NCBI GenBank assembly: GCA_965261485.1
Contig: CBDHCY010000005.1
Coordinates: 1,228,901 to 1,292,900, forward strand
Source of the DNA: Leptospiria bacterium
GTDB lineage: Bacteria > Spirochaetota > Leptospiria > Turneriellales > CBDBES01
DNA length: 64,000 nt
Reading direction: 5' to 3'
Positions 6,609 to 39,699 of the stretch are shown here, in pieces; position 1 is the stretch's first letter; the number at the start of each line of letters is the position of its first letter. Position numbers and translations under genes: made by a program. Below the pieces are notes generated by a model. It was not told the origin of the DNA. It did not search any database and saw nothing but the letters and a program-made list of their open reading frames with translations.

Positions 6609-6875
6609 ATGCCCACTGTAAAAAAAAGAGTAAAATCAGAGATTGATATTCAAAATCTTGATAGCACACAGATGCTATTTTATCTCATACAACGAATTGA
6701 TCAGAAAATAGATCGTCTTGACGATCGAATTGATAATGTCGAAAGCAAACTCAGCGACAGAATTGATAGTGTCGAAAATAAACTCAGCGATCGAATTGAT
6801 AATAATTTCAAATGGTTGGTCGGTATTATAATTACTGGTTTTCTCACGATGTTAGGCAGTTTCTTTTTGAAATAA
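6609..6875 (+). CDS. Bdr-like coiled-coil protein with C-terminal membrane anchor, copy 1 (2 x 11-aa repeats)
   Basis: 88 aa. Conserved N-terminus MPTVKKRVKSEIDIQNLDSTQMLFYLIQRIDQKIDR, repeats IDNVESKLSDR and IDSVENKLSDR, and hydrophobic tail NNFKWLVGIIITGFLTMLGSFFLK. Confidence 0.8.
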   Translation: MPTVKKRVKSEIDIQNLDSTQMLFYLIQRIDQKIDRLDDRIDNVESKLSDRIDSVENKLSDRIDNNFKWLVGIIITGFLTMLGSFFLK

Positions 6876-6900
6876 TTTTATCTTTTTTGATTTATAGTTA

Positions 6901-6934
6901 ACTTACTTATAAAAATATAATTATATAAGTAAGT
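6901..6934 (+). terminator. AT-rich inverted repeat in the spacer after each Bdr-like gene (possible terminator; first copy given)
   Basis: The arms acttacttata (6901-6911) and tataagtaagt (6924-6934) are exact reverse complements around a 12-nt loop. An equivalent hairpin (ttacttata ... tataagtaa) recurs in every spacer. There is no strong T-tract, so terminator function is uncertain. Confidence 0.35.
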
Positions 6935-7029
6935 AAGATTTAAATTATTGAAAGTGAATTCGAACAACAAAATATAGTAACTTGCTAAAATAGAATTGAC
7001 AAAACAGCTTTTATGTAAGAAAAAAAGAG

Positions 7030-7329
7030 ATGCCCACTGTAAAAAAAAGAGTAAAATCAGAGATTGATATTCAAAATCTTGATAGCACACAGATGCTATT
7101 TTATCTCATACAACGAATTGATCAGAAAATAGATCGTATTGATGACAAAATTGATAGTGTCGAAAATAAACTCAGCGACAGAATTGATAATGTCGAAAAT
7201 AAACTCAGCGACAGAATTGATAGTGTCGAAAATAAACTCAGCGATCGAATTGATAATAATTTCAAATGGTTGGTCGGTATTATAATTACTGGTTTTCTCA
7301 CGATGTTAGGCAGTTTCTTTTTGAAATAA
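7030..7329 (+). CDS. Bdr-like coiled-coil membrane-anchored protein, copy 2 (3 repeats)
   Basis: 99 aa with the same N- and C-termini as copy 1 and three ID[SN]VENKLSDR units. Confidence 0.8.
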   Translation: MPTVKKRVKSEIDIQNLDSTQMLFYLIQRIDQKIDRIDDKIDSVENKLSDRIDNVENKLSDRIDSVENKLSDRIDNNFKWLVGIIITGFLTMLGSFFLK

Positions 7330-7483
7330 TTTTATCTTTTTGGGTTTATAGTTAAATTACTTATAGAAATATAATGATATAAGTAAGTAAGATTTAAATT
7401 ATTGAAAGTGAATTCGAACAACAAAATATAGTAACTTGCTAAAATAGAATTGACAAAACAACTTTTATGTAAGAAAAAAAGAG

Positions 7484-7804
7484 ATGCCCACTGTAGAAAA
7501 AAGAGTAAAATCAGAGATTGATATTCAAAATCTTGATAGCACACAGATGCTATTTTATCTCATACAACGAATTGATCAGAAAATAGATCGTATTGATGAC
7601 AAAATTGATAGTGTCGAAAATAAACTCAGCGATCGAATTGATAGTGTCGAAAGCAAACTTAGCGATCGAATTGATAGTGTCGAAAATAAACTCAGCGACC
7701 GCATAGAGAAACTAGAGAAAAAGGTTGATAATAATTTCAAATGGTTGGTCGGTATTATAATTACTGGTTTTCTCACGATGTTAGGCAGTTTCTTTTTGAA
7801 ATAA
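7484..7804 (+). CDS. Bdr-like coiled-coil membrane-anchored protein, copy 3 (3 repeats plus EKLEKKV module)
   Basis: 106 aa with three 11-aa units followed by an extra 7-aa EKLEKKV segment before the NNFKW anchor. Confidence 0.8.
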   Translation: MPTVEKRVKSEIDIQNLDSTQMLFYLIQRIDQKIDRIDDKIDSVENKLSDRIDSVESKLSDRIDSVENKLSDRIEKLEKKVDNNFKWLVGIIITGFLTMLGSFFLK

Positions 7805-7958
7805 TTTTATCTTTTTGGGTTTATAGTTAAATTACTTATAGAAATATAATTATATAAGTAAGTAAGATTTAAATTATTGAAAGTAGATTTGAACAATAAA
7901 ATACAGTAACTTTTTAAAATAGAATTGACAAAACAGCTTTTATGTAAGAAAAGAAGAG

Positions 7959-8324
7959 ATGCCCACTGTAGAAAAAAGAGTAAAATCAGAGATTGATATT
8001 CAAAATCTTGATAGCACACAGATGCTATTTTATCTCATACAACGAATTGATCAGAAAATAGATCGTATTGATGACAAAATTGATAGTGTCGAAAATAAAC
8101 TCAGCGATCGAATTGATAGTGTCGAAAGCAAACTTAGCGATCGAATTGATAGTGTCGAAAATAAACTCAGCGATCGAATTGATAGTGTCGAAAATAAACT
8201 CAGCGATCGAATTGATAGTGTCGAAAATAAACTCAGCGATCGAATTGATAATAATTTCAAATGGTTGGTCGGTATTATAATTACTGGTTTTCTCACGATG
8301 TTAGGCAGTTTTTTCTTGAAATAA
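7959..8324 (+). CDS. Bdr-like coiled-coil membrane-anchored protein, copy 4 (5 repeats)
   Basis: 121 aa with five IDSVE[NS]KLSDR units and the same termini. Confidence 0.8.
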   Translation: MPTVEKRVKSEIDIQNLDSTQMLFYLIQRIDQKIDRIDDKIDSVENKLSDRIDSVESKLSDRIDSVENKLSDRIDSVENKLSDRIDSVENKLSDRIDNNFKWLVGIIITGFLTMLGSFFLK

Positions 8325-8478
8325 TTTCATCTTTTTGGGTTTATAGTTAAATTACTTATAGAAATATAATTATATAAGTAAGTAAGATTTAAATTATTGA
8401 AAGTAAATTTGAATAACAAAATATAGTAACTTTCTAAAATAGAATTGACAAAACAGCTTTTATGTAAGAAAAGAAGAG

Positions 8479-8877
8479 ATGCCCACTGTAGAAAAAAGAG
8501 TAAAATCAGAGATTGATATTCAAAATCTTGATAGCACACAGATGCTATTTTATCTCATACAACGAATTGATCAAAAAATAGATCGTATTGATGACAAAAT
8601 TGATAGTGTCGAAAATAAACTCAGCGACAGAATTGATAATGTCGAAAATAAACTCAGCGATCGAATTGATAGTGTCGAAAGCAAACTTAGCGATCGAATT
8701 GATAGTGTCGAAAATAAACTCAGCGATCGAATTGATAGTGTCGAAAATAAACTCAGCGATCAAATTGATAGTGTCGAAAATAAACTCAGCGATCGAATTG
8801 ATAATAATTTCAAATGGTTGGTCGGTATTATAATTACTGGTTTTCTCACGATGTTAGGCAGTTTTTTCTTGAAATAA
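8479..8877 (+). CDS. Bdr-like coiled-coil membrane-anchored protein, copy 5 (6 repeats)
   Basis: 132 aa with six 11-aa units (one ends in Q: KLSDQ) and the same termini. Confidence 0.8.
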   Translation: MPTVEKRVKSEIDIQNLDSTQMLFYLIQRIDQKIDRIDDKIDSVENKLSDRIDNVENKLSDRIDSVESKLSDRIDSVENKLSDRIDSVENKLSDQIDSVENKLSDRIDNNFKWLVGIIITGFLTMLGSFFLK

Positions 8878-9031
8878 TTTCATCTTTTTTGATTTATAGT
8901 TAAATTACTTATAGAAATATAATTATATAAGTAAGTAAGATTTAAATTATTGAAAGTAAATTTGAATAACAAAATATAGTAACTTTCTAAAATAGAATTG
9001 ACAAAACAGCTTTTATGTAAGAAAAGAAGAG

Positions 9032-9319
9032 ATGCCCACTGTAGAAAAAAGAGTAAAATCAGAGATTGATATTCAAAATCTTGATAGCACACAGATGCTA
9101 TTTTATCTCATACAACGAATTGATCAAAAAATAGATCGTATTGATGACAAAATTGATAGTGTCGAAAATAAACTCAGCGACAGAATTGATAATGTCGAAA
9201 ATAAACTCAGCGACAGAACAGAAAAACTAGAGAAAAAGGTTGATAATAATTTCAAATGGTTGGTCGGTATTATAATTACTGGTTTTCTCACGATGTTAGG
9301 CAGTTTTTTCTTGAAATAA
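9032..9319 (+). CDS. Bdr-like coiled-coil membrane-anchored protein, copy 6 (2 repeats plus EKLEKKV module)
   Basis: 95 aa with two 11-aa units, then TEKLEKKV, and the same termini. Confidence 0.8.
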   Translation: MPTVEKRVKSEIDIQNLDSTQMLFYLIQRIDQKIDRIDDKIDSVENKLSDRIDNVENKLSDRTEKLEKKVDNNFKWLVGIIITGFLTMLGSFFLK

Positions 9320-9473
9320 TTTTATCTTTTTGGGTTTATAGTTAAATTACTTATAGAAATATAATTATATAAGTAAGTAAGATTTAAATTATTGAAAGTA
9401 AATTTGAACAATAAAATACAGTAACTTTTTAAAATAGAATTGACAAAACAGCTTTTATGTAAGAAAAGAAGAG

Positions 9474-9806
9474 ATGCCCACTGTAGAAAAAAGAGTAAAA
9501 TCAGAGATTGATATTCAAAATCTTGATAGCACACAGATGCTATTTTATCTCATACAACGAATTGATCAGAAAATAGATCGTATTGATGACAAAATTGATA
9601 GTGTCGAAAATAAACTCAGCGACAGAATTGATAATGTCGAAAATAAACTCAGCGATCGAATTGATGATGTCGAAAATAAACTCAGCGATCGAATTGATAG
9701 TGTCGAAAATAAACTCAGCGATCGAATTGATAATAATTTCAAATGGTTGGTCGGTATTATAATTACTGGTTTTCTCACAATGTTAGGCAGTTTCTTTTTG
9801 AAATAA
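9474..9806 (+). CDS. Bdr-like coiled-coil membrane-anchored protein, copy 7 (4 repeats)
   Basis: 110 aa with four 11-aa units (IDSV, IDNV, IDDV, IDSV) and the same termini. Confidence 0.8.
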   Translation: MPTVEKRVKSEIDIQNLDSTQMLFYLIQRIDQKIDRIDDKIDSVENKLSDRIDNVENKLSDRIDDVENKLSDRIDSVENKLSDRIDNNFKWLVGIIITGFLTMLGSFFLK

Positions 9807-11827: not shown

Positions 11828-12659
11828 TATTACTTTTTTTTATTCTTTTAACGTTGATTAAAAAAAACCAATAAAAAACTGAAAAAAAACGATACCATAA
11901 AAAAGGATTTTTAAAAATATTCCAAAACCATACTAGATGTTTTTTTTTAAAAAAATTAGGTGGAGCTTTTTTAAAACCAGCCAGTACATTAAATTCATTA
12001 GACATATTAACAACAATAGAGCTATTGAATTCAGATTTATAATTTTTCATCCAATTAAGACCACGCACATTGCCCAGATCCATTAAAATAATGTCTGGCT
12101 TTATTTTATTCCATGCTTGACGAATCAGTTTAGCCTCCTCATCAATAATCTCACCGTGATGCCTTCCCATAATAAGGAGATTAGGAAATGCGTGTTTAAG
12201 ATTAAAAAATAATTTCTCAGAACCTCTTTGACTACCTCCAATGAGAAAGATACTATAATTTTTAGCCTCCGCCAAGCGAAGTAAGCTCATCACATAACTA
12301 ACAGTAGGAACAATGCTAGGAATAGGGTTTCCCAATACTCTGCTCATCCAACAAATGCCTGAACCTACAGGAAGATTAATAAAAGAAGCTTGAGCAATCT
12401 CAGTATATTTTTTATTTAAACGCAATCGAATTAATTGATAGGGGTCAATGGGTAAAATATATAAAGGTTCTACAGACTTTCTCTGAGAGTTGGATTCTAA
12501 TTTGTGCAATGTTATATCAAGAAGCCCCATTAAATTAGTTTGAAAGAAGGGAAATCCAAGATAGTTCTTAGGCTTTTTAAGCACAAAGTTCGCCTTCGTA
12601 TTTCTTGATTCTAAAATCGGATCATTGTTTGTTTTATTTGTATTATAAGAATTTGACAT
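11820..12659 (-). CDS. WecG/TagA/CpsF-family glycosyltransferase
   Basis: 279 aa. IFLIGGSQRGSEKLFFNLKHAFPNLLIMGRHHGEI...IKPDIILMDLGNVRGLNWM matches the family core (LlGg...P.l.i.G.hhGyf...pDil.v.mG.P.QE.w). Confidence 0.7.
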   Translation of the reverse strand: MSNSYNTNKTNNDPILESRNTKANFVLKKPKNYLGFPFFQTNLMGLLDITLHKLESNSQRKSVEPLYILPIDPYQLIRLRLNKKYTEIAQASFINLPVGSGICWMSRVLGNPIPSIVPTVSYVMSLLRLAEAKNYSIFLIGGSQRGSEKLFFNLKHAFPNLLIMGRHHGEIIDEEAKLIRQAWNKIKPDIILMDLGNVRGLNWMKNYKSEFNSSIVVNMSNEFNVLAGFKKAPPNFFKKKHLVWFWNIFKNPFLWYRFFSVFYWFFLINVKRIKKSNIN

Positions 12660-12792
12660 TTTAGGACCTAAAGGGTAAAGTAGCGATTAGTTTTATTGAG
12701 AGAGAGACTGTCAATAAAAATTATTTTTATTCCCCCATCCAAAATTATTATATAGTACTTTGATCTCTTATAATTTAAGTTTTATTACAAGA

Positions 12793-14085
12793 TCAAACTG
12801 CTAAACTCTTTGCCCAAGAAAGAGCTTTATTAAGACCAGATATCGTCAATTTTGTTTGCCAAAAAAACCTTGTATAATCTTCTGATTTTAATATCTTTTG
12901 TTTTCTCTCATTGTTTTTGGATAAAGACAAATAATTTTGAATTAAATGTATATTTTTATCTAAATTTACTGTTTCTCTACCATCAGACATAAAGTCTTCT
13001 CCTAAATCATGCATGGAATATTCAAAGGAATGTCGCTCAAAATCTCCCGATTTTTTTTTCACTGAGCAATGAATTACAACAGGTTTTGACAATGAAAATG
13101 TAAGTGAGCCTTCTCTACCTTTTCGTATGACAATATTGATAGGGAATCCTGCAAATTCTCCTAATGACAACATTTTTTCGAGAAAAGGTTCATGAAAGGC
13201 GGAGGTAATTGAAATACCTGCACCCATAACACGAGTAAATTTTTCTAAGGTCGCCATAAAAGGACGTTTAATCATACGTTTTCTTAGATTTCGCCAGTGC
13301 TCCCATGAGCCACTAAGAGCCTTGTGATCAAGATATGTTCCCCACTGTGATTCATGTAAGACAGGCTTTTGATTAGAGTTTATAAATGGAGCATTCAGTT
13401 TTTCACCTATATTTTTTAATGTGACACCATATTTTGGTCCTGATGAATCACCACAAAGAGAAAGAACATAAAAACCTTGATCTCTCAAAGATAAAGCAAT
13501 CAAAGGTGTAATGAGAGGAGATTTTTCTACACCATTAAATGGTTCTGATAACTGAATAAGGTTTTTATTTGTTACCATTTTTTGAGAAAAGGGTGCCTGC
13601 AAGGTTTTCATAAAAGAAGAATGTAAACCCGAATATTCTCCGTTAGAGGCATATCTAAGCCTCAACCACGTAGCACTCATTGCCCTTGCCATATCATCCT
13701 CTTCAGTGGAATATTTAGTAATATTGAATAAAAAATCTCCCAGTTTCTCTGACTCTTTACGAGAAAATATATCACCTCGCAAAATTTTAAGAAGATTACT
13801 TTGAACAGATAATTTTGTGTGAGGGATAAATTGATTTATGAAAGAGTCTGGCTTGATCTCCCTCCCTGAGAGTAAATATTTTAAAAGCAATTGTTCATGT
13901 TCGTTGGGTCCCTTGAAATAAAGGGCCACAGCTAAAACTGTTTTTTGAATAGGATCAATCACTAGATCATCAATCTCACTTTTCTGAAAGGTATTGAGTA
14001 AATTTTTGACTAAATCTTGACTAAGAGAGCGATTGCCTTTTTTACCAATCGAAACAAGCTTGATCGCTTCTTTTAGATAATGCAA
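12793..14085 (-). CDS. Hypothetical protein, distantly glycosyltransferase-family-3 (TrpD)-like
   Basis: 430-aa ORF. The N-terminal helical region (YLKEAIKLVSIGKKGNRSLSQDL) and the central LCGDSSGPKYGVTLKNIGEKL and KRPFMATLEKF loosely parallel TrpD motifs. The canonical GTGGD and KHGN motifs are absent, so function is unknown. Confidence 0.4.
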   Translation of the reverse strand: MHYLKEAIKLVSIGKKGNRSLSQDLVKNLLNTFQKSEIDDLVIDPIQKTVLAVALYFKGPNEHEQLLLKYLLSGREIKPDSFINQFIPHTKLSVQSNLLKILRGDIFSRKESEKLGDFLFNITKYSTEEDDMARAMSATWLRLRYASNGEYSGLHSSFMKTLQAPFSQKMVTNKNLIQLSEPFNGVEKSPLITPLIALSLRDQGFYVLSLCGDSSGPKYGVTLKNIGEKLNAPFINSNQKPVLHESQWGTYLDHKALSGSWEHWRNLRKRMIKRPFMATLEKFTRVMGAGISITSAFHEPFLEKMLSLGEFAGFPINIVIRKGREGSLTFSLSKPVVIHCSVKKKSGDFERHSFEYSMHDLGEDFMSDGRETVNLDKNIHLIQNYLSLSKNNERKQKILKSEDYTRFFWQTKLTISGLNKALSWAKSLAV

Positions 14086-15235: not shown

Positions 15236-16988
15236 TCCACCCTTCGCTCAGAAATCAAAGCATCACTCGTGACTATCGGTCAGAGCACCCTCCAATCGCC
15301 ATCGCGATTGGCGATCGTCACTCTTCGCTCAGCGAGCAAGGCATCACTCGCTACTATCGGTCGCCACTCTTCGCTCAGAGATCAAAGCATCACTCGCGAT
15401 TGTCCGTCGACCTCCGCCCAGCGATCAAAGCATCACTCGCGATTGGCGGTCGGCCGTTTATCGTTGCCCTTCGAGCGAAGCATCACTCGTGACTATCGGT
15501 CAGAGCACCCTCCAATCGCCATCGCGATTGGCGATCGTCACTCTTCGCTCAGCGAGCAAGGCATCACTCGCTACTATCAGTCGCCACTCTTCGCACAACA
15601 AAGTATCACTAGCGATTATCGATCGGCACTCTTCGTACAACAAAGCATCACTCGCGACTTGTCGATCGTCACTCTCCGCTCAGAGATCAAAGCATCACTC
15701 GCGACTATCGGCGTTTTCTTCGCTCAGCGAGTAAAGCATCACTCGCGACTTGTCGATCGGCGTTTTCTTCGCTCAGCGAGTAAAGCATCACTCGCGACTT
15801 GTCGATCGGCGTGCCCTTCGCTCAGAGATCAAAGCATCACTCGTGACTGTCGGTTGGCTCTCTTCGCTCAGAGATCAAAGCATCACTCGCGACTGGCGGT
15901 CGTCACTCTTCGCTCAGAGATCAAAGCATCACTCGCGACTATCGGCGTTTTCTTCGCTCAGCGAGTAAAGCATCACTCGCGACTTGTCGATCGGCGTGCC
16001 CTTCGCTCAGAGATCAAAGCATCACTCGTGACTGTCGGTTGGCTCTCTTCGCTCAGAGATCAAAGCATCACTCGTGACTAGCGATCGTCACTCTTCGCTC
16101 AGCGAGTAAGCATCACTCGAGACTGTCGGTCGTCACCCTTCGCACAACAAAGCATCACTCGCGACTGTCGATCGTCACTCTTCGCACAACAAAGCATCAC
16201 TCGCGGCTTGTCGATCGCCACTCTTCGCCTTGCGAGCGAAGCATCATCCACAATTATCGATCGCCACTCTCCGCACAACAAAGCATCACTCGTGACTGGC
16301 GGTCGTCACTCTTCGCTCAGAGATCAAAGCATCACTCGCGATTGGCGATCGTCACTCTTCGCTCAGCGAGCAAGGCATCACTCGCTACTATCGGTCGCCA
16401 CTCTTCGCTCAGAGATCAAAGCATCACTCGCGATTGTCCGTCGACCTCCGCCCAGCGATCAAAGCATCACTCGCGATTGGCGGTCGGCCGTTTATCGTTG
16501 CCCTTCGAGCGAAGCATCACTCGAGACTATCGGTCGCCACCCTTCGCACAACAAAGTATCACTAGCGATTATCGATCGGCACTCTTCGTACAACAAAGCA
16601 TCACTCGCTACTATCGGTCGCCACTCTTCGCTCAGAGATCAAAGCATCACTCGCGATTGTCCGTCGACCTCCGCCCAGCGATCAAAGCATCACTCGCGAT
16701 TGGCGATCGTCACTCTTCGCTCAGCGAACAAAGCATCACTCGCGACTGTCGGTCGTCACTCTTCGCCCAGCGATCAAAGCATCACTCGTGACTGGCGGTT
16801 GACACTCTTTGTCTGCGAGTGCATCACTCGCGACTGTCGATCGTTTATCGTTGCCCGGAGAGCGAAGCATCACTCGTGACTGTCGATCGTCACCCTTCGC
16901 CCAGAGATCAAAGTATCACTCGCGATTATCGGTCGGCGTGCCCTTCGCCTAGCGAGCGAATCGCCATTCGTGACTGGCGGTCGACCGT
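15236..16988. repeat. GC/CpG-rich co-oriented tandem array of degenerate 42-47-bp units (about 37 units by eye), abutting the stop codon of the lipoprotein gene at 16989
   Basis: The core GCATCACTCG[CT]GA recurs every 42-47 bp (for example at 15261, 15341, 15387, 15430 ... 16867, 16913). Consensus unit: aaagcatcactcgcgactgtcggtcgtcactcttcgctcagagatc. The array has higher-order duplications (15302-15490 matches 16336-16524, and 15261-15360 matches 15481-15580). GC content contrasts sharply with the AT-rich surroundings. Confidence 0.95.
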
Positions 16989-18965
16989 TTATCGTTGCCC
17001 GGGGAGCAGAGTATCGTATGACGCACATACGCCGTTTGTTATTGGGCTGACACATCTTTTGATCGCAGGCAGCTGCTTGGCAGTGCCTAGGTCCCAAGCA
17101 CTACCTAAACCATCGGGGTGCATGCCAGTTATGCTCTTTAGCTGGGCCAGCGTAAGGCCCGTCGCATTTACACTACTCCCAGAATTTACACTACTCCCGG
17201 AACCCTGTGCCTTCTTATTCTCAAGCGTTCGTTCGGTGACATTCACACTTTGGGGTGCGTCGGTGTTCCAATAACTATCTGTTATCGTCATAATAAAAGA
17301 AGAAGCAAAAGGAGAAGCGCCCAGCAGACCACCTGAATTAGAAACAGCAATAGCAATACTACTAAAAGAAGAGATTTTACCAGAACCACTAAAATAACTA
17401 TTAGTTATTACTAAAGATTTCTCAGAATAACCCACCAGACCACCTGAAGTAGAACCAGCACTAGTATTATTAGAAGAAGAAAATATTTCACCAGAGCCAT
17501 TAAAATAACTATTCACTATCGTCAAAGAAGCAGAAGACTGGCCCACCAGACCGCCTGAAGTAGAATGCAAAACATTGGCATAAGAAGATATATCACCAGA
17601 ACCACTAACATAACTATTCATTATTACTAAAGAATTCTTAGAATAACCCACCAGACCGCCTGAGCCAAAAGACTTAAAAGTATTGGTAAGCTTGTTAGAG
17701 TAAGAAGAAACCCCAGCAGAACCACTAAAAATACTATTTATAATTACTAAACCAGTATCAGTTGAGGCGAAAACTTCACCCACCAAACCGCCTGATCGAG
17801 ACTGTTCAGAAGAACTAAAGACCCCACCTGAGCCACTGAAAGTGCATTCGCTTATTGTCAGAGAACCAGAAACACGACCAACCAAACCACCCACAGAATT
17901 AAAAGTAGTAACCAGAGCAGCATTAGCATAGATCGAGCCAGAGATGATCTCCACATTGCGAATCATTCCTCCATCTACCTGACCAAATAAACCGACAGCT
18001 ACAAGACTTGAATGCACCCAAAGATTGGCGATCGTATGATTATTTCCATCAAAAGTGCCAGTGAAGCTAGCAATAGTAGAGCCAATGGGTTCCAAAGAGG
18101 TGTCTATACTGGTGTCAATCACAGTTATCCGCTCGCCTGCATCGTCTTCATCACCGTCGGCATTTTTATCGATGCTCACCTCTGTTGTATCGATCACCCC
18201 ATTAGGTGTACCGTTCTTTCCACCGCCTGTATCAAGCAAGCTCAAAAGGTCAATGTTGGCTGTTAGCTCGTAGCCGTTGCAACTTCCTGAGGAGCAACCG
18301 CTTGAATTATTAGGTCCACCATTCTTCACACTTCTATAACTTGTGCCCGCCAAATTATGACGCATGTTATTGAGCATCTCAGCGGTATATATTTCAATTA
18401 AGCCATCACCATCATGATCAGCCTTAGAGCCTCCACCAGAGATCTCAACACCCGAAGCATAATTAAAGCTCATGTCATAAGCGAAAAGCTTATAAAAATA
18501 ATGGGTTGAAGCTGTAGCCTCGGAATCGATGAATGTAGTTTCGCTTGAGTTATACACCACCACACTTGAGGCACCAATTGACACGCCACTCGCATAATCT
18601 TGCCCTGTCGTGGGGGCATCTGATATGCTGCTTTCACTTCTCAAGATTAAAACCTTAGAAAAATCATCATCGCTAGGCTCGCTCCAAGTTAGAGTGATGC
18701 TAGTGCTATCTAAACTTGAGAAGCCACCACTTATAACGTTCTTTGGTGATGTTTTATCTTCTTCAGACCTAACACCCGGTCCTGGCATATCAGGTGCATC
18801 AGGTGCATCAGGTGAAACAGGTGGAACATTGTTGGGATTTTCTTTAGAACAAGACGCACCAAAAACGATACAAAATAATAAAAAACTAGCGACCACAGCC
18901 ATTAAACCACCTTTGATCACGCGAGCCACATAAAGTCTCATCCAATATTGTACATTTTCACACAT
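16989..18965 (-). CDS. Surface lipoprotein with FN3-like domain, Ca-binding DxDGDG motif and 6 GLUG-type (GGLVG) repeats (paralog L1)
   Basis: The ORF runs to 18998. I prefer the ATG at 18965 because GAGGAGG lies 6 nt upstream. Lipobox-type signal ...LLFCIVFGASC, FN3-like ITLTWSEPSDDDFSKVLILRS...YFYKLFAYD, then DHDGDGLIEIYTAEMLNNM. Six modules of GGLVGxSxxSLxIxNSYFSGSGxxSS follow, with the conserved C-terminus SYWNTDAPQSV...CASYDTLLPGQR. Confidence 0.85.
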   Translation of the reverse strand: MCENVQYWMRLYVARVIKGGLMAVVASFLLFCIVFGASCSKENPNNVPPVSPDAPDAPDMPGPGVRSEEDKTSPKNVISGGFSSLDSTSITLTWSEPSDDDFSKVLILRSESSISDAPTTGQDYASGVSIGASSVVVYNSSETTFIDSEATASTHYFYKLFAYDMSFNYASGVEISGGGSKADHDGDGLIEIYTAEMLNNMRHNLAGTSYRSVKNGGPNNSSGCSSGSCNGYELTANIDLLSLLDTGGGKNGTPNGVIDTTEVSIDKNADGDEDDAGERITVIDTSIDTSLEPIGSTIASFTGTFDGNNHTIANLWVHSSLVAVGLFGQVDGGMIRNVEIISGSIYANAALVTTFNSVGGLVGRVSGSLTISECTFSGSGGVFSSSEQSRSGGLVGEVFASTDTGLVIINSIFSGSAGVSSYSNKLTNTFKSFGSGGLVGYSKNSLVIMNSYVSGSGDISSYANVLHSTSGGLVGQSSASLTIVNSYFNGSGEIFSSSNNTSAGSTSGGLVGYSEKSLVITNSYFSGSGKISSFSSIAIAVSNSGGLLGASPFASSFIMTITDSYWNTDAPQSVNVTERTLENKKAQGSGSSVNSGSSVNATGLTLAQLKSITGMHPDGLGSAWDLGTAKQLPAIKRCVSPITNGVCASYDTLLPGQR

Positions 18966-19059
18966 AAAACGCCTCCTCAGACATTGACCGCATTTCACTA
19001 TGCCGATCTTGCAAATAAATTAAGTTAGAATCGCCTTCAATCTTGATGGGTGCTTCAAC

Positions 19060-19122
19060 ACCACGAAAAAAATAAAATAAAAGGCCAAAGATTTCAGCAA
19101 AAGCCACGACTTTTGCTGAAAT
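19060..19122 (-). terminator. Rho-independent-type terminator hairpin between the microsatellite and the L1 gene
   Basis: Perfect 13-bp inverted repeat atttcagcaaaag (19091-19103) / cttttgctgaaat (19110-19122) with a 6-nt loop. On the minus strand it is followed by ctttggccttttattttattttttt. Confidence 0.55.
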
Positions 19123-19232
19123 AACATGCATGATAATTAGGGCTAACGCCCCGCTTCTAAAATTTTTGAGAAAAATGCCGCGAAGGCACGACCTATTTTT
19201 TTTAGAGAATAAACTAAGACCTAAGTCTAGTG

Positions 19233-19386
19233 TCTGTAGTTCTGTAGTTCTGTAGTTCTGTAGTTCTGTAGTTCTGTAGTTCTGTAGTTCTGTAGTTCTG
19301 TAGTTCTGTAGTTCTGTAGTTCTGTAGTTCTGTAGTTCTGTAGTTCTGTAGTTCTGTAGTTCTGTAGTTCTGTAGTTCTGTAGTTC
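19233..19386. repeat. Perfect octanucleotide microsatellite (tctgtagt / actacaga), about 19 copies
   Basis: Uninterrupted tctgtagt repeats run from 19233 to about 19386. They lie between the stop of the Rpn gene (19563) and the terminator hairpin upstream of L1. Confidence 0.97.
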
Positions 19387-19562
19387 ATTCATTTTTCCAA
19401 GCCCCACACAGAGACAGCCTCAGTCAACAATGCCTGCACATGTTGTCAACGTTTTTTTATTTTTTATGTAAAATTGATGTCGCAACTTCGCACATGACGT
19501 GTGAAAAAAGCGGGTAAAAAAAGAGACTATTTTCTGCTAATCACAAACGATGCCAGATCCGC

Positions 19563-20564
19563 CTATGGTCGTAAATGCTCAATCTCTTCTATAGAAAGAC
19601 CGGTGCTTCTTGAGATCACTTTAATAGAGAAACCCTCTTTCAAGAGACTTTGAGCTACTTCAGCCTTGCCCTTAGCCACGCCCTTAGTCATGCCCTTAGT
19701 CATGCCCTCGGTTATGCCCTCGGTTATGCCTTCGGCTCTGCCCTTAGTCATGCCCTTAGTCATGCCCTCAGTTATGCCCTTAGCTATTAGCTCGTCTGCA
19801 ATGGATCTCATATCCCCTCCTGCCTTTGGTGAAATGTATTGCCCAGCACTCTTTACAATAAAATCAATAGTAAACCCGCCAGTGCTAGTAATAATATAGT
19901 TCAATAAAACATCAAGCATTTTCTTATTTTCTTGAGAGATTCGTGCATAATAATCTTTGAAAAGATCTTCTAAGCGTGACCTGCTCGATAAAAACCAAAT
20001 ATCCTGTAGACTTTTTAAAAATGCCTGTACAGCCACAGAGAAATCGGTGAACTCTGTTTTATCTGAGCGAAGATCAAGTAATTCATAGTGAAAGTCTGGT
20101 ATGTATTTTTGTAAAGACTTTCTCAGATGCTCAGGAATCACTAAAGAACTGCTGAAGAGCGTGGGAATATCCCACTCTTTTTTTCCGTGATAAAGCACTA
20201 AAGGAATCACGGGCATTGTGCTCGTTTTATAAATTCCAGCTAAATACATGAGAAGCTGTGAATGAATATTTTTTTCTTTATACGATTTATGTTCTATCAG
20301 ACAAAAAACGCCCAGCCTTTTTGATTCCAAAGATTTCGCAGATTCTGAATCTGATTGCTTTTTGATAGGTACGCTGTAGAGAATATCAGTGAATCGTTCT
20401 TGATCTGTTGCATCAATAAAGCACCCTTTCTCTATTTGTAATTTTATAAAGTCTAGCTCTGATGTGATCTCTTTAGGCAGAGCATTTTTAAGAAAATCTA
20501 CCGCATAAGTTTTTTGTGATAAAACTTGTTTGGTTATGATGTCGTGTTGGTTTAGCTTTGCCAT
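19563..20564 (-). CDS. Rpn/YhgA-like recombination-promoting nuclease (PD-(D/E)XK putative transposase family)
   Basis: 333 aa. The N-terminus (HDIITKQVLSQKTYAVDFLKNALP ... RFTDILYSV ... FCLIEHKSYKEK...QLLMYL) matches the Rpn/YhgA-like nuclease core. The C-terminus has 5-aa repeats (GITEG/GMTKG, 15-bp units, about 19672-19790) and a helix-rich tail (AQSLLKEGFSIKVISRSTGLSIEEIEHL) typical of the family. Confidence 0.8.
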   Translation of the reverse strand: MAKLNQHDIITKQVLSQKTYAVDFLKNALPKEITSELDFIKLQIEKGCFIDATDQERFTDILYSVPIKKQSDSESAKSLESKRLGVFCLIEHKSYKEKNIHSQLLMYLAGIYKTSTMPVIPLVLYHGKKEWDIPTLFSSSLVIPEHLRKSLQKYIPDFHYELLDLRSDKTEFTDFSVAVQAFLKSLQDIWFLSSRSRLEDLFKDYYARISQENKKMLDVLLNYIITSTGGFTIDFIVKSAGQYISPKAGGDMRSIADELIAKGITEGMTKGMTKGRAEGITEGITEGMTKGMTKGVAKGKAEVAQSLLKEGFSIKVISRSTGLSIEEIEHLRP

Positions 20565-20687
20565 AAGATGTTCATCTTATAATTGATAGACAAAGCAAAA
20601 ACCATTAAAAAATACTTTTGAAAGCGTCAATGGGGATTCAAGCTCTAAAGTTTGGGCAGGGCAGAATATTACTTACTCCCGACCTGC

Positions 20688-21785
20688 GAACAAAGCATCA
20701 CTCGCGACTGTCGGTCGTCACTCTCCGCACAACAAAGCATCACTCGCGATTATCGATCGTCACTCTTCGCCCAGCGATCAAAGCATCACTCGTGACTGGC
20801 GGTTGACACTCTTTGTCTGCGAGTGCATCACTCGCGACTATCGGCGTTCCCTTCGCCCAGAGATCAAAGCATCACTCGCGATTATCGATCGTCACTCTTC
20901 GCCCAACGATCAAAGCATCACTCGTGACTGTCGGGTCGTCACTCTCCGCACAACAAAGCATCACTCACAACTGTCGGTCGTCGTGCCCTTCGCTCAGAGA
21001 TCAAAGCATCACTCGCTACTTGTCGATCGACACCCTTCGCACAACAAAGCATCACTCGCGATTGTCCGTCGACCTCCGCCCAGCGATCAAAGCATCACTC
21101 GCGATTGGCGATCGTCACTCTTCGCTCAGAGAGCGAAGCATCACTCGCGATTGGCGATCGTCGACTCTCCGCCCAGCGATCAAAGCATCACTCGCGATTG
21201 GCGATCGTCGACTCTCCGCCCAGCGATCAAAGCATCACTCGCGATTGGCGATCGTCGACTCTCCGCCCAGCGATCAAAGCATCACTCGCGATTGTCCGTC
21301 GACCTCCGCCCAGCGATCAAAGCATCACTCGCGATTATCGGTCGTCACTCTCCGCACAACAAAGCATCACTCGCGACTATCGGCGTTCCCTTCGCCCAGA
21401 GAGCGAAGCATCACTCGCGACTGTCGGGTCGCCACTCTTCGCCCAGAGATCAAAGCATCACTCGTGACTGTCGGGTCGTCACTCTCCGCACAACAAAGCA
21501 TCACTCACAACTGTCGGTCGTCGTGCCCTTCGCTCAGAGATCAAAGCATCACTCGCTACTTGTCGATCGACACCCTTCGCACAACAAAGCATCACTCGCT
21601 ACTGTCGATCGTCACTCTTCGCACAACAAAGCATCACTCGCGACTGTCGATCGTCACTCTTCGCACAACAAAGCATCACTCGTGACTGGCGGTCGCCACT
21701 CTTCGCCCAGCGATCAAAGCATCACTCGCGATTATTCGGTCGGCGTGCCCTTCGCTCTGCGAGTGCATCACTCGCGACTGTCCGT
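20688..21785. repeat. Second GC/CpG-rich co-oriented array of the same 42-47-bp unit family (about 25 units by eye), abutting the stop codon of the lipoprotein gene at 21786
   Basis: The same GCATCACTCG[CT]GA core recurs at 20694, 20737, 20782 ... 21719, 21765. There is an internal duplication (20914-21060 matches 21454-21600) and a shared segment with array 1 (20782-20838 matches 16779-16835). Orientation relative to the adjacent gene is the same as in array 1. Confidence 0.95.
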
Positions 21786-23687
21786 TTATCGTTGCCCGGG
21801 GAGCAGAGTATCGTATGACGCACATACGCCGTTTGTTATTGGCCTGACACATCTTTTGATCGCAGGTAATTGCATATCGGTGCCTAGGTCCCAAGCACTA
21901 CCTAAACCATCGGGGTGCATGCCAGTTATGTTTTTTAGCTGGGCCAGCGTAAGAGCCCCATCCATACCCACAGCATTACCTCGTGCCTTCTTATCTTGGA
22001 GCGTTCGTTCGGCGACATTCACACTTTGGGGTGCGTCGGTGTTCCAATAACTATCTGTTATCGTTATAGAAGCAGCAAAACCATTTCCTATCAAACCACC
22101 TGAATTAGAACCAGCAATAGCAATACTAAAAGAAGAGATTTTACCAGAACCACTAAAATAACTATTAGTTATTGGCAAAGTACCTTCAGAAGAACCCACC
22201 AGACCACCTGAAGAAGAATTAGCAAGCCCATGATTAGAATAAGAAAAGATTTCACCAGAGCCATTAAAATAACTATTCATTATTGTCAAAGAAGCCTTAG
22301 AATAACCCACCAGACCACCTGAAGCAGAATGCAAAGCCTTGGTATAAGAAGATATATCACCAGAACCACTAACATAACTATTCATTATTACTAAAGACTT
22401 CCCAGAATAACCCACCAGACCGCCTGAGCCATAAGAGTCAGCAGTATTGGTAGGCTTGCTAGAGTAAGAAGAAACCCCAGCAGAACCACTAAAAATACTA
22501 TTTATAATTACTAAACTAGTACCAATCGAGGCGGAAACTTCACCCACCAAACCGCCTGATCGAGACTGTATAGAAGAACTAAAGACCCCACCTGAGCCAC
22601 TGAAAGTGCATTCGCTTATTGTCAGAGAACCATAAACAAGACCAACCAAACCACCCACAAAATTAAAAGCAGTAGCCAGATCAGCATAAATCGAGCCAGA
22701 GATGATCTCCACATTGCGAATTTGAACAGTTTCACTAGCTCCTCCATCTACCTGACCAAATAAACCGACAGTTGAAAGAGTTGAATGCATCCAAAGATTG
22801 GCGATGGTATGATTATTTCCATCAAAAGTGCCAGTGAAGTTATTAGTAGTAGCAATGGGTATCCAGGAGGTGTCCATACTGATGTCAATCACTGTTATCC
22901 GCTCGCCTGCATCGTCTTTATCACCGTCGGTATTTTTATCGACACTCTCCTCTGTTGTATCGATCTCACCGTTGGGGGCAACATAACCATTCTCACCAAT
23001 TTCACCAATCCCATCAAGCAAGCTCAAAAGGTCAATGTTGGCTGTTAGCTCGTAGCCATGGCAACCTGAGAGGCAACCGCTTGAATTAGGTCTACCATTC
23101 TTCACACTTCTATAACTTGTGCCCGCCAAGTTATGACGCATGTTATTGAGCATCTCAGCCGTATATATTTCAATTAAGCCATCCTCATCATGATCAGCCT
23201 TAGAGCCTCCACCAGAGATCTCAACACCCGAAGCATAATTAAAGCTCATGTCATAAGCGAAAAGCTTATAAAAATAATGGGTTGAAGCTGTAGCCTCGGA
23301 ATCGATGAATGTAGTTTCGCTTGAGTTATACACCACACTTGAGGCACCAATTGACACGCCACTCGCATAATCTTGCCCTGTCGTGGGGGCATCTGATATG
23401 CTGCTTTCACTTCTCAAGATTAAAACCTTAGAAAAATTAGTATCACTAGGCTCGCTCCAAGTTAGAGTGATGCTAGTGCTATCTAAACTTGAGAAGCCAC
23501 CACTTATAACGTTCTTTGGTGATGTTTTATCTTCTTCAGACCTAACACCCGGTCCCGGCATATCAGGTGCATCAGGTGAAACAGGCGGAACATTGTTGGG
23601 ATTTTCTTTAGAACAAGACGCACCAAAAACGATACAAAATAATATCAGAGCTTGAGCGATCTTGCAGAGTAATTTTATTATATTCAT
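21786..23687 (-). CDS. Surface lipoprotein with FN3-like domain, DxDxDG motif and 6 GLUG-type repeats (paralog L2)
   Basis: The ORF extends to a TTG at 23723. I prefer the ATG at 23687 (MNIIKLLCKIAQALILFCIVFGASC). The N-terminal roughly 170 aa are almost identical to L1. The centre is diverged and the C-terminus is ...CASYDTLLPGQR. Confidence 0.85.
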   Translation of the reverse strand: MNIIKLLCKIAQALILFCIVFGASCSKENPNNVPPVSPDAPDMPGPGVRSEEDKTSPKNVISGGFSSLDSTSITLTWSEPSDTNFSKVLILRSESSISDAPTTGQDYASGVSIGASSVVYNSSETTFIDSEATASTHYFYKLFAYDMSFNYASGVEISGGGSKADHDEDGLIEIYTAEMLNNMRHNLAGTSYRSVKNGRPNSSGCLSGCHGYELTANIDLLSLLDGIGEIGENGYVAPNGEIDTTEESVDKNTDGDKDDAGERITVIDISMDTSWIPIATTNNFTGTFDGNNHTIANLWMHSTLSTVGLFGQVDGGASETVQIRNVEIISGSIYADLATAFNFVGGLVGLVYGSLTISECTFSGSGGVFSSSIQSRSGGLVGEVSASIGTSLVIINSIFSGSAGVSSYSSKPTNTADSYGSGGLVGYSGKSLVIMNSYVSGSGDISSYTKALHSASGGLVGYSKASLTIMNSYFNGSGEIFSYSNHGLANSSSGGLVGSSEGTLPITNSYFSGSGKISSFSIAIAGSNSGGLIGNGFAASITITDSYWNTDAPQSVNVAERTLQDKKARGNAVGMDGALTLAQLKNITGMHPDGLGSAWDLGTDMQLPAIKRCVRPITNGVCASYDTLLPGQR

Positions 23688-31230: not shown

Positions 31231-31405
31231 ATTAACGACACTCTTTTTTTCATAAATTATTAGTCAATACTTTGTTTGGTTTAAAGTAGAAATACGATTT
31301 AAAAAAAAAGACTAAACTTCATCCAAAAGTAATAGATGTTACTACAAAAACAAATTAAAGCGTCTGTTTCATGGCAGAATATCTACCCCAAATCTCAATT
31401 CAGCC

Positions 31406-33952
31406 CTATCTTTGCCCGGGGAGTAGGGCACCGTATGACGCACACGTCCTCCAATCAGTGACACCATTCGTTGTAATTGTGGGAATACACAACTTAACCG
31501 CGGGTAATTGCATGTTGCTGCCTAGGTCCCAAGCTTTTGTGTTATCAGCAGCACTATGTGAGAGACCACCGTCGGGATCGGTGTTACTTATGGCTTGTAG
31601 TTGCACTAGCGTAAGACCTGTTATACCTGATGGGTCAACTACATCCGCGGCATTACCCAATGCCCGATCGGCGACGAGCGTTTGTCCAGAGATACTTTGA
31701 GGTGCATCGGTATTCCAGTAAGACCTCATGACTGTCAAAGAAGAAAGAATTCGCCCCACCAAACCGCCAGAATAAGAAAAAGGATCTACGAAAGAAGATA
31801 CACCACTAGAACCACTAAAATAACTATTCACTATTATTGAAGAAGCTCCCAAATAACCCACCAGACCACCAGAATAAGAAGGAGCAGCAGCAGAAGAAGA
31901 AGAGACTTCACCAGAACCACTAAAATAACTATTCACTATTCTTGAATCACCAGCAGAATAACCCACCAGACCACCAGAAGCAGAATAAGAAGCAGCAGAA
32001 GAAGAAGAAGAAGAAACTCCACCAGAACCACTAAAATAACTATTCACTATTTTTGAAGCACTCGCAGAAAAACCCAGCAGACCACCTGAATAAGCATAAG
32101 AAGAAGAAGAAGAGGAGACTCCACCAGAACCACTAAAATAACTATTCACTATTATTGGAGCACTAGCAGAAGAACCCACCAGACCACCGGCAATAGTAGA
32201 AGGAGTAGTAGAAGGGGAGGAAGAGAAGGAAGATACACCACCCAATCCACTAAAATAGCTGCTAATCATCGTCAAAGAAGAAAGAGTTCGCCCCACCAAA
32301 CCGCCAGAAGAGGAAGCATAAGAAGAAGAAGAAGAAGAGACTCCACCAGAACCACTAAAATAACTATTAGTTATTGTCAAAGAAGAAGTGTTGGAAAGTC
32401 CCACTAGACCACCTGAATAAGAAAAAGAAAAAGAAGAAGAAGAGACTCCACCAGAACCACTAAAATAACATTTGATTATCCTCAAAACACCTTCAGAAGA
32501 ACCCACCAGACCACCTAAAGAAGAAGCAGCAAAAGAAGAAGAAGAGACGACTCCACCAGAACCACTAAAATAACTATTTATTATCGTCAAATCATCTTCA
32601 GAAGAACCCACCAGACCACCGGCAATAGTAGAAAGAGTAGTAGAAATAGAAGAAGCAAATACTGATCCTGAAATGATTCCCACATTGTGAATCTCTACAG
32701 ACCCTTTGACAAAACCAAATAAACCCGCATAAACATCACTTGTGGAAGAATCAATATTCACCCAAAGATTCCCAATGGTATGGTTGTTACCCTCGAAAAT
32801 GCTAGTAAATGGAGCAGATGCATCGCCAATAGGCACCCAGCTTGTGTCTTTGCCCGTGTCCGTATTAATCACCTTCACCTTCTCACCTGCATCATCAGTG
32901 TTTCCGTTGGCATTTTTATCAATGCCCTTCGGCGTCGTATCGATTTTTCCATTTCTGTTTGCATCAAGCAAACTCAAAAGATCAATATGGGCTGTTAACT
33001 CATAGCCATTGCAAACGTTGTTTGGACAACCATCAACATTACCTCTTGCTTGTTCTGCTGCCGAGCTTTTATAACTTGCACCTGCCAAATCATGACGCAT
33101 GTTATCGAGCATTTCAGCAGTATATATCTCAATCAAGCCATCACCATCATGATCGGCCTTAAAGCCTCCGCCAGAAATTTCAATACCTGAAGCATAATTA
33201 AAACTCGAATCATAAGCAAATAGCTTATAATAATAATGGGTTGAGGCTACTCTAGCCCCTGCCTCGGAATCTTTAAATGTAGTTGTATTTGAGTTATACA
33301 CCATGATTGAGCTACCAATTGAATTAGAATTTGCATAATCTTGCCCTGTTGTTGGAACATATGATATTGAATTTTCACTCCTTAAAATCAAAATTTTATA
33401 AAAATTAGCACCGATAGGGTTGCTCCAAGCTAGAGTTATGCCCTCATTATCTAAATTTAAAAACCTACTATTTATGACATTTTTGGGTGATGTGGGTGAT
33501 ATGGTACCTCCTTCAAATTCAACGCCCGAAGCATAATTAAAGCTACTGTCATAAGCAAAAATCTTATAAAAATAAGTGGCACCTTCTGTAATTTTCATGT
33601 CTGTAAAAGTTGACATCTCTGCGTGATGCACCACTTTTGAGCCACCAATCAAATCAACATTTACATAGCTTTTCCCTACCTCAGGAGTATCTGATATTGA
33701 GCTTTCACTCCTTAAAATTAAAACCTGAGAAAAATCAACATCGGTAGGGTTGCTCCAGCTTAACATTATTTCGTTTGAATTACGCCGAAAAACAAAATTT
33801 GTGATATTGCCTGGTGGGTTCTCATCTAAGATTATTGGTAATCTATCATTTGGTAGATCACTCAGATCTTTTTTAACACAAAACGCACTAAAGATGATGC
33901 AAACTAAGACTAAACCTCGGGTAACCTTAAACAATGATTTAACTACACTCAT
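31406..33952 (-). CDS. Surface lipoprotein with two FN3-like domains, DHDGDG motif and 9 GLUG-type repeats with Ser tracts (paralog L3)
   Basis: 848 aa. Signal MSVVKSLFKVTRGLVLVCIIFSAFC, two copies of the [IM]LSWSNPTD/ITLAWSNPI...YFYK[IL]FAYDSSFNYASG module, and nine GGL[VL]G modules. The C-terminus is ...CASYGALLPGQR. Confidence 0.85.
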   Translation of the reverse strand: MSVVKSLFKVTRGLVLVCIIFSAFCVKKDLSDLPNDRLPIILDENPPGNITNFVFRRNSNEIMLSWSNPTDVDFSQVLILRSESSISDTPEVGKSYVNVDLIGGSKVVHHAEMSTFTDMKITEGATYFYKIFAYDSSFNYASGVEFEGGTISPTSPKNVINSRFLNLDNEGITLAWSNPIGANFYKILILRSENSISYVPTTGQDYANSNSIGSSIMVYNSNTTTFKDSEAGARVASTHYYYKLFAYDSSFNYASGIEISGGGFKADHDGDGLIEIYTAEMLDNMRHDLAGASYKSSAAEQARGNVDGCPNNVCNGYELTAHIDLLSLLDANRNGKIDTTPKGIDKNANGNTDDAGEKVKVINTDTGKDTSWVPIGDASAPFTSIFEGNNHTIGNLWVNIDSSTSDVYAGLFGFVKGSVEIHNVGIISGSVFASSISTTLSTIAGGLVGSSEDDLTIINSYFSGSGGVVSSSSFAASSLGGLVGSSEGVLRIIKCYFSGSGGVSSSSFSFSYSGGLVGLSNTSSLTITNSYFSGSGGVSSSSSSYASSSGGLVGRTLSSLTMISSYFSGLGGVSSFSSSPSTTPSTIAGGLVGSSASAPIIVNSYFSGSGGVSSSSSSYAYSGGLLGFSASASKIVNSYFSGSGGVSSSSSSAASYSASGGLVGYSAGDSRIVNSYFSGSGEVSSSSAAAPSYSGGLVGYLGASSIIVNSYFSGSSGVSSFVDPFSYSGGLVGRILSSLTVMRSYWNTDAPQSISGQTLVADRALGNAADVVDPSGITGLTLVQLQAISNTDPDGGLSHSAADNTKAWDLGSNMQLPAVKLCIPTITTNGVTDWRTCASYGALLPGQR

Positions 33953-36753: not shown

Positions 36754-36828
36754 ATATAAAAATAATAAAATTTATCAAAAAATTTATTTTTTCATGGCAG
36801 AATATCTACCCAAAATCTCAGTTCAGCC

Positions 36829-39561
<2,733 letters not shown>

Positions 39562-39699
39562 TCAAACATCTCTATTTATTAGAAAATATACCTCAAACTC
39601 TTCATGGAAGATATATTTTGTCAAATATAAAAATAATAAAGTTGACCAAAAAAATTATTTTTTCATGGCAGAATATCTACCCAAAATCTCAGTTCAGCC

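Follow-up and report, generated by a model that had tools for sequence, protein, structure and literature searches.

How did a 1.75-kb block of GC-rich tandem repeats come to lie immediately behind the stop codon of a lipoprotein gene in an otherwise AT-rich genome, and why does a related block lie behind a second gene of the same family? The question is raised by a stretch of 64,000 nucleotides (hereafter, the window) from the contig CBDHCY010000005.1 of a bacterium of the class Leptospiria. The answer argued for here, to which a probability of roughly 0.7 is assigned, is that the two blocks (arrays 1 and 2) are a lineage-specific, non-coding and recombination-driven minisatellite that was derived from the terminus of the gene itself, and that is found within a hypervariable lipoprotein island. 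The arrays, the genes that they follow, and an exact duplicate within array 1 are:

15236-16988, minus strand: array 1, approximately 38 non-coding units of 42-50 bp, immediately 3' of L1, with the gene-sense consensus GAGTGATGCTTTGATCTCTGAGCGAAGAGTGACGACCGACAGTCGC
16989-18998, minus strand: L1, a lipoprotein paralog of the GLUG family, with lipobox FGASC, stop codon TAA and the protein end ...CASYDTLLPGQR
20686-21785, minus strand: array 2, 25 units of the array 1 family, 3' of L2
21786-23723, minus strand: L2, a GLUG-motif lipoprotein paralog, with lipobox FGASC and the protein end ...CASYDTLLPGQR, 100% identical to the database protein P0001, which is encoded on a 2.13-Mb contig
15302-15489 and 16336-16523, no strand assigned: an exact 188-bp segmental duplicate of four units

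Both arrays are located on the same strand as, and directly 3' to, the minus-strand paralogs L1 and L2. The units of array 1 are arranged head to tail in a single orientation, and the first of them, which is degenerate, adjoins the L1 stop codon directly (the L1 open reading frame (ORF) ends at 16989), as a preliminary description of this DNA had stated. That description had also proposed the tandem array itself, which was confirmed both by Tandem Repeats Finder (TRF), which reported an array with a period of 46 bp and 31 copies at 15319-15442 and 15522-16937, together with a higher-order period of 223 bp, and by the 10-mer GCATCACTCG, which was found 55 times in the window, on the plus strand only and exclusively within 15260-16876 and 20695-21774, as compared to 0.05 occurrences in dinucleotide shuffles. 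When array 1 was cut at its core, 35 cores were recovered, separated by intervals of 42-50 bp and by three intervals of double length (81, 81 and 89 bp); it therefore contains approximately 38 units of 42-50 bp, which amends a previous estimate of about 37 units of 42-47 bp. The listing parsed in this manner displays the modular build that had been noticed before, in which the core is followed by a CG-rich linker, by a cactcttcgc block and by one of a few alternative tails. Across the window arrays, the core GAGTGATGCTT hardly varies and, together with the block CTGNGCGRAGRG, it provides the best-conserved columns over 121 units.

At a level of organization above that of the individual unit, blocks of 91, 188 and 223 bp have been duplicated, and the exact 188-bp pair substantiates the repeated blocks of about 190-230 bp that had been pointed out. 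Arrays 1 and 2 have in common three identical unit types, as well as exact blocks of 83 and 85 bp. Their GC fraction is 0.55-0.56 and their ratio of observed to expected CpG is approximately 1.6, as compared to 0.33 and 0.72, respectively, in the remaining window. The palindromes TCGCGA and CGATCG occur 36 and 26 times in the two arrays together (0.8 being expected for each), but each of them is present in roughly half of the units, and not in most of them as had been thought.

The relationship of the units to the gene that precedes them is visible at the gene end and at several positions within array 1, where the following segments were located:

16989-17030, minus strand: founder-type segment, comprising the last codons (..SYDTLLPGQR) and the stop codon, to which the units are homologous
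15455-15469, minus strand: internal copy of the gene-end 15-mer GGGCAACGATAAACG, inside the exact 188-bp duplicate
16489-16503, minus strand: internal copy of the same 15-mer, belonging to the same event as 15455-15469
16842-16856, minus strand: internal copy of the same 15-mer, a second and independent event

The 15-mer, which comprises the GQR codons, the stop codon and three further bases, is found at both true gene ends (16986-17000 and 21783-21797), and the sequence at 16985-17045 is identical over 61 bp to that at 21782-21842 in L2. The recurrence of this gene-end motif inside the array had been reported at three internal positions, all of which were found; two of them, however, are contained in the exact 188-bp duplicate, and therefore only two independent internal events are represented. 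The unit that contains 16842-16856 and the neighbouring unit resemble the junction of L2 and array 2.

The origin of the units was traced further in relatives, that is, in contigs of related genomes in two ENA assemblies (L016, L017, L018, L140, L142 and L144). Units or arrays are found behind the homologs of L1 and L2 in L016, L017, L018, L140 and L144, and on these five independent contigs, which derive from several related genomes, all of them share one orientation and all follow the stop codon of a GLUG-family paralog, beginning either immediately after it or after a short run of AATTGAC. On the L017 contig, which is circular and 1.92 Mb in length, four paralogs are each followed by one or two units of 52 nt, and the unit matches the terminus of the coding sequence (CDS) at 19 of 24 positions (TGCTCTACTCACTGGGCAAAGATA versus TGCTCTGCTTGCCGGGCAACGATA), a result that was equalled by 1 of 2000 shuffles. 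In L144, a higher-order repeat of 187 bp begins within the CDS, at 9299 (the gene ends at 9321), and every unit retains codons together with a TAA stop (CTGGGC..CGACCATAA; CTGGGC...CGACCATAAGCCGCG); when four representative units were compared with the terminus of the CDS only, the observed score was reached in each case by 2-41 of 5000 shuffles. Beyond the core that they share, the two window unit types match the L017 unit to an extent attained by 5-13 of 3000 shuffles, and an L016 unit matches it to an extent attained by 39 of 3000. Three CDS ends and ten units could be aligned colinearly across the whole unit, such that the core GATGCT aligns with the codons for (Y)GAL, and CTGRGCGRAGA aligns with PGQR.

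The junction between gene and array also fixes the register in which the window units can be compared with the terminus. In that register, the whole inter-core segment yielded a z score of 4.4 (0 of 500 shuffles), and the CDS-only part yielded z scores of 2.2-2.5 (4-6 of 500 shuffles). A GQR C-terminus is present in more than 80 of the 120 listed family proteins, and thus the terminus is ancestral and the unit derivative. As judged from these alignments, it is established that the units descend from the CDS terminus, the stop codon and a short flank; the serial and diverging duplication of a CDS-terminus segment of approximately 45 nt, which had been suggested from the window, is thereby borne out, mainly through L144 and L017. 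The composition of the arrays requires no selection, because the founder segment already has a GC content of 54%; with respect to the suggestion that the CpG density implies either selection or an active generating mechanism, the former is not needed and the latter, in the form of active turnover, is upheld.

The arrays were further found to differ greatly between genomes that are otherwise nearly identical. The L016 contig, from a very close strain, is syntenic with the window across NadE, an ortholog of L2, its array and an Rpn gene. NadE is 99.6% identical and a flank of 6.6 kb (30200-23600) is 98-100% identical, but the identity falls to 62-92% at the first codons of L2 and to 60-80% in array 2, and recovers to only 92-94% in the Rpn gene. 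The orthologous arrays, of 25 units in the window and approximately 23 in L016, share no identical unit type, and internal copies of GGGCAACGATAAACG are absent from all three arrays on L016. The nearest relative of most units is a unit in the same array. The genes themselves are mosaic, in that L1 and L2 are 94-99% identical over nucleotides 200-700, 55-90% identical in the middle and 100% identical over the last 57 nt. An array in L144 holds, in addition, gene-end copies of another paralog type, GGGCAACGATAGACGA, and in L140 the gene end and the two units nearest to it match L2 and array 2 at 100% identity, while the upstream context differs (LepA/UvrB). By this comparison, it is likewise established that the arrays have turned over much faster than their surroundings and that sequence has been exchanged with the array of a paralog. 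Units are amplified locally and segments are duplicated, arrays within one genome are homogenised, and between strains they are replaced; taken together, such behaviour is that of a recombination-driven satellite within a hypervariable island.

The island itself extends over 23600-18000 in the window and 6700-12400 in L016, with the identity remaining at 40-94% across array, Rpn gene and L1. Cassettes consisting of a lipoprotein gene, an array and an Rpn gene number three in L016 and two in the window.

The process behind these findings may be described as follows. The array originated in the tandem duplication of approximately 45 nt, which included about the last nine codons of a GLUG lipoprotein gene, its stop codon, and 12-15 of the following bases. 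Because the first stop codon would be kept, the protein would remain unchanged, and such duplications would therefore have been tolerated and could accumulate. Coding repeats of 102-123 bp are abundant in this gene family, in which unequal exchange may thereby have continued at the 3' end. In outline, the comparisons show growth and reshuffling of the array by unequal crossing-over or slippage, accompanied by gene conversion, with the result that higher-order blocks were duplicated, unit variants were amplified locally, sequence was exchanged with the array behind a paralog in the same genome, and authentic gene-end sequence was occasionally copied back into the array. The GC richness would have been inherited from the founder, and the shared arrays may constitute a long common 3' tract in which exchange between paralogs could start or end.

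Several points weigh against this account. When 37 distinct ordinary units of the window were compared with the final 48 nt of the CDS by local alignment that was free of phase, the z scores against shuffled controls were 0.6-0.7, no better than the shuffles; the comparison of unit and terminus was thus positive in register and negative without it, and within the window alone the homology rests on the register and on the two independent junction-like units. Coverage is low (2-12x) for the relatives' contigs, and the placement of arrays is known for those contigs and, out of a source genome of 2.13 Mb, for the 64-kb window. Recombination has been read indirectly, from the comparison of sequences. 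Finally, the near-invariance of the core could reflect selection for a binding site instead of recent amplification, although the core is much looser in L144, which favours recent amplification.

It is possible, but a good deal less likely, that the arrays are a selected cis-element, which would provide a downstream homology tract for programmed gene conversion or cassette exchange and thereby for antigenic variation. The model for such a function is Borrelia hermsii, in which a downstream homology sequence (DHS) is needed for antigenic switching (PMC6011951). A role for the arrays as 3' homology for exchange between lipoprotein paralogs is plausible but unproven. The arrays are located 3' of surface-lipoprotein paralogs in several genomes; the family is large (373 homologs of L2, with about 35 of the 120 listed matches on the 2.13-Mb source contig); the identity at the end of the mosaic L1/L2 pair continues past the stop codon; the L140 gene end and its first units recur in a different genomic context; the island is hypervariable among strains that are approximately 99% identical; the arrays are homogenised within a genome; and the L144 array contains the ends of another paralog type. 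All of this, however, is equally expected if the array is a mere by-product of recombination. Moreover, L3-L6, which belong to the same family, have no array behind them in the window, in more distant relatives the units number no more than one or two, and neither a single expression site nor promoterless silent copies were seen, L1 and L2 both appearing complete. The DHS of B. hermsii is a single extragenic element of 214 bp that contains an inverted repeat of 31 bp on which switching depends, and it operates with one expression site and silent copies (PMC6011951). The arrays resemble it in that they are extragenic repeated elements 3' of surface-lipoprotein genes that are common to members of the family, and there is a parallel at the level of the system in that the vmp loci diversify by gene conversion. 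They differ from it in that they consist of tandem 46-bp units, display neither a sequence relation to it nor a significant inverted repeat (folding z scores being near 0 in six of seven segments), and lack any visible expression-site architecture; being tandem, unrelated in sequence and free of an inverted repeat, they do not belong to the DHS family, and the parallel is one of logic.

A rather improbable alternative is that the array offers many binding sites, each formed by the core and a GAGTGAC-like half-site approximately 20-26 bp away, to a regulator, a nucleoid protein or the product of the Rpn gene, which is encoded as follows:

19563-20564, minus strand: Rpn nuclease gene (YhgA-like, PF04754, TIGR01784), directly downstream of array 2 and within the repeated cassette

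In favour of this possibility are the conservation of the core and the CTGNGCGRAGRG block across the units and the position of the Rpn gene, since Rpn/Transposase_31 genes also follow all three arrays on L016 (two of these genes being partial). The conservation of the core is, in part, an effect of collection, because the units were found through it; furthermore, the core corresponds to the founder codons for (Y)GAL. No Rpn gene adjoins array 1 or the L140 array, in L142 such a gene occurs without an array, and the link between Rpn gene and arrays is therefore treated as unproven. The Rpn gene of the window also contains, near its C-terminus at 19667-19783, a tract of 12-bp repeats encoding four residues (GMTK/GITE...), which resembles the variable tetrapeptide repeats described in the Rpn toxin and internal-antitoxin defence genes of Escherichia coli, of which such repeats are typical (PMC10400941).

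Still less probable is an action of the array as RNA, whether as a stabiliser in the 3' untranslated region, as a terminator of the lipoprotein mRNA, or as a source of small RNA. The array is contiguous and co-oriented with the gene, no intrinsic terminator was found between the stop codon and the array, and GCGAGT/ACTCGC hairpins are possible in some units. The 6-bp hairpin that had been described is thus present as sequence, but when seven 300-nt pieces were folded on both strands and compared to dinucleotide shuffles, six of them behaved like the shuffles (z scores of -1.5 to +0.5 on either strand, and of -0.4 to +0.5 on the sense strand), the exception being 15260-15559, which contains a local palindrome and reached a z score of -3. 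No Rfam family was matched, there being no match at the gathering score anywhere in the window, and the hairpin register differs, by reading, between the window and L017. Being G-rich rather than C-rich, the sense RNA would be a poor loading site for Rho.

The remaining alternative, to which almost no weight is given, is that the array is an artefact of assembly, an insertion of foreign DNA that has nothing to do with the gene, or an antisense protein-coding region. The antisense ORFs of 298-415 residues and a GC fraction of 0.55 in a genome of 0.33 could suggest one or another of these. The long antisense ORFs occur because the consensus is free of stop triplets on that strand, and in L016a, the orthologous array, 7-16 stops interrupt each frame. 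An artefact or an insertion of foreign origin, which the preliminary description had itself named as an alternative, is contradicted by the occurrence of like arrays behind homologous genes on five independent contigs and by the homology of the units to the gene terminus, and no match was obtained among plasmids and phages (by BLAST), while a scan of viral contigs returned one unrelated coding repeat.

Other readings of the arrays were also rejected. Coding on the sense strand is contradicted by 30-45 stops per frame, and by unit lengths of 42-50 bp that are mostly not multiples of three; this same variation in length applies even if TGA is recoded. Translational coupling through the TGATG of the core is contradicted by the main unit type, in which the only ATG-led frame (ATG CTT TGA) ends after two codons. 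A Dam/GATC cluster was considered as well: GATC is present at the expected frequency outside the arrays, and so its excess inside them is a consequence of repetition. The only match to the core in the window outside the arrays, at 56153, is a chance match inside a naphthoate-synthase-like gene, and not a solo unit. A scan of representative genomes with a two-unit pattern yielded single chance matches in Amycolatopsis and in two metagenome-assembled genomes, with no array, and a scan of JGI metagenomes with a three-core pattern yielded at least 120 matches, of which all those listed are unrelated tandem repeats (the best global score being 11 over approximately 46 columns).

Every L gene is also overlapped at its 3' end by long antisense ORFs (31371-31700, 36794-37135, 39359-39898, 16819-17274 and 20803-22050), with a conserved ..PGSRAPYDAH.. 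sequence. They are probably a by-product of the GC-rich and stop-poor complement of the conserved C-terminal coding region.

Among known repeats, the arrays belong with the bacterial intergenic minisatellites, or variable-number tandem repeats (VNTRs), and display all three of the features that define them, being tandem beyond chance, non-coding, and polymorphic between close strains. VNTRs of 34-46 bp are used in the typing of Leptospira. The similarity extends to the head-to-tail arrangement of non-coding units of tens of base pairs, to the presence of higher-order blocks, and to differences in both sequence and copy number among close strains; in contrast to VNTRs, the arrays described here are much longer (25-38 units, 1.1-1.75 kb), are strongly GC-rich in an AT-rich genome, recur behind a single gene family, and derive from a coding terminus that includes the stop codon. 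In Neisseria, the Sma/Cla repeat and RS1 repeats of pilE/pilS are conserved, non-coding elements 3' of variable surface-protein loci that have been implicated in recombination; these are single copies, bear no sequence relation to the present units, and are not derived from a stop-codon region. REP/BIME and BOX elements are modular extragenic repeats that are also found 3' of genes, and that are palindromic, hairpin-forming and dispersed in the genome, whereas the unit described here is neither palindromic nor dispersed. Membership in the REP/REPIN class is likewise rejected, in that there is no excess of folding and the neighbouring gene encodes an Rpn PD-(D/E)XK nuclease, not a RAYT transposase. 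The units abut without spacers, which excludes a CRISPR array. Mycobacterial interspersed repetitive units (MIRUs) are described as mobile, with insertion at start codons and with an ORF that is coupled to the gene downstream (PMC12548453). The arrays have in common with them that tandem units of 40-100 bp adjoin the ends of reading frames and lie between genes of like orientation; however, they are not MIRUs: they begin at a stop codon, their units come from the stop region of the upstream gene and are without a conserved or coupled ORF, and they show no sign of mobility to unrelated sites, no unit being found elsewhere in the window. What is unusual in the present case is the traceable origin of the repeat from a segment spanning a stop codon, its size and GC contrast, and its recurrence behind members of one surface-lipoprotein family within a hypervariable island.

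The relatives and the window together provide a stepwise series for the birth of a minisatellite from last codons and a stop codon, beginning with one unit, continuing with nine stop-carrying units, and leading to 38 diverged units. The series explains how an AT-rich genome can accumulate 1-2 kb of GC-rich and CpG-dense DNA with no selection on base composition. In strains that otherwise share about 99% identity, the locus marked by the array changes far more quickly than the DNA around it, which makes the array a practical strain marker. The locus is also a candidate for the diversification of surface lipoproteins in an uncultured lineage; should the arrays act as crossover tracts, they would represent a new architecture among the mechanisms of bacterial antigenic variation.

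The genes and repeats of the locus follow one another on the minus strand in the order NadE, L2, array 2, Rpn, an 8-bp microsatellite, L1, array 1 and an SBF-family transporter, and no tRNA is present within the window. L1 and L2 are both full length and both possess a signal peptide; the GLUG motif itself was detected in L2, within the family to which L1 belongs, and the true start of L1 is probably located downstream of the first GTG of its ORF. The microsatellite, located between the Rpn gene and L1 at 19228-19386, consists of 19.8 copies of TAGTTCTG (99% matches) and is contained in a 149-aa ORF (18958-19407, with the repeat ELQNYRTT) that overlaps the start of the L1 ORF. In L016 the same microsatellite is present in 15 copies at the orthologous site and in 10 copies at a second cassette. 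Because its unit of 8 bp is not a multiple of three, it is a candidate switch for phase variation of the lipoprotein gene by slipped-strand mispairing. The paralogs L3-L6 (31406-42303) share the PGQR end of L1 and L2 but have a TAG stop and a different 3' flank. One of them, L4 (34105-36676), is divided into two overlapping ORFs (35321-36676 and 34105-35406), probably as the result of a frameshift in serine-rich coding repeats of 102 bp, and would be either a pseudogene or a phase-off copy.

Additional repeats and small genes accompany the arrays of the relatives. The runs of the 7-bp repeat AATTGAC, which contain TTGACA, separate the stop codon from the first unit at 8592-8625 and 13251-13285 in L016 and at 6665-6700 in L018, are found at the boundaries of higher-order repeats in L144 (5578-5610, 9448-9476 and 9634-9665), and are missing from the window arrays. 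In L017, L144 and L140, the units are flanked by the lipoprotein gene on one side and by a small gene downstream on the other. In L140, a gene for an 88-aa coiled-coil and transmembrane protein (12429-12695) lies inside the array, and its palindromic 3' end, ATGCTTTCAAAGCATTGA, recurs at the distal end of that array (12985-13005); a small gene of this type normally follows the units in L017, L018 and L144, with a TTGACA-type promoter just past the last unit. Downstream of the units in L017, at 15480-15657 and 18250-18446, is an uncalled orphan coding fragment with a divergent second C-terminal module (..KGAWNFGTLMQIPALKYADYDGTG..NCGEFIPGQGR-stop), which resembles an old C-terminus that was displaced, or else a remnant left by recombination between tandem paralogs. 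The related contigs also carry flagellar genes, LpxA, an Lsa36-like domain and a Treponema-named Rpn subfamily, which point, but only weakly, towards a spirochaete-like lineage. Within the window, on the plus strand at 6722-9734, tandem repeats of approximately 450 bp each contain coding repeats of 33 bp (IDSVENKLSDR...); the set probably comprises several tandem genes whose products would be small coiled-coil membrane proteins and which belong to the family of the gene found behind the arrays in the relatives.

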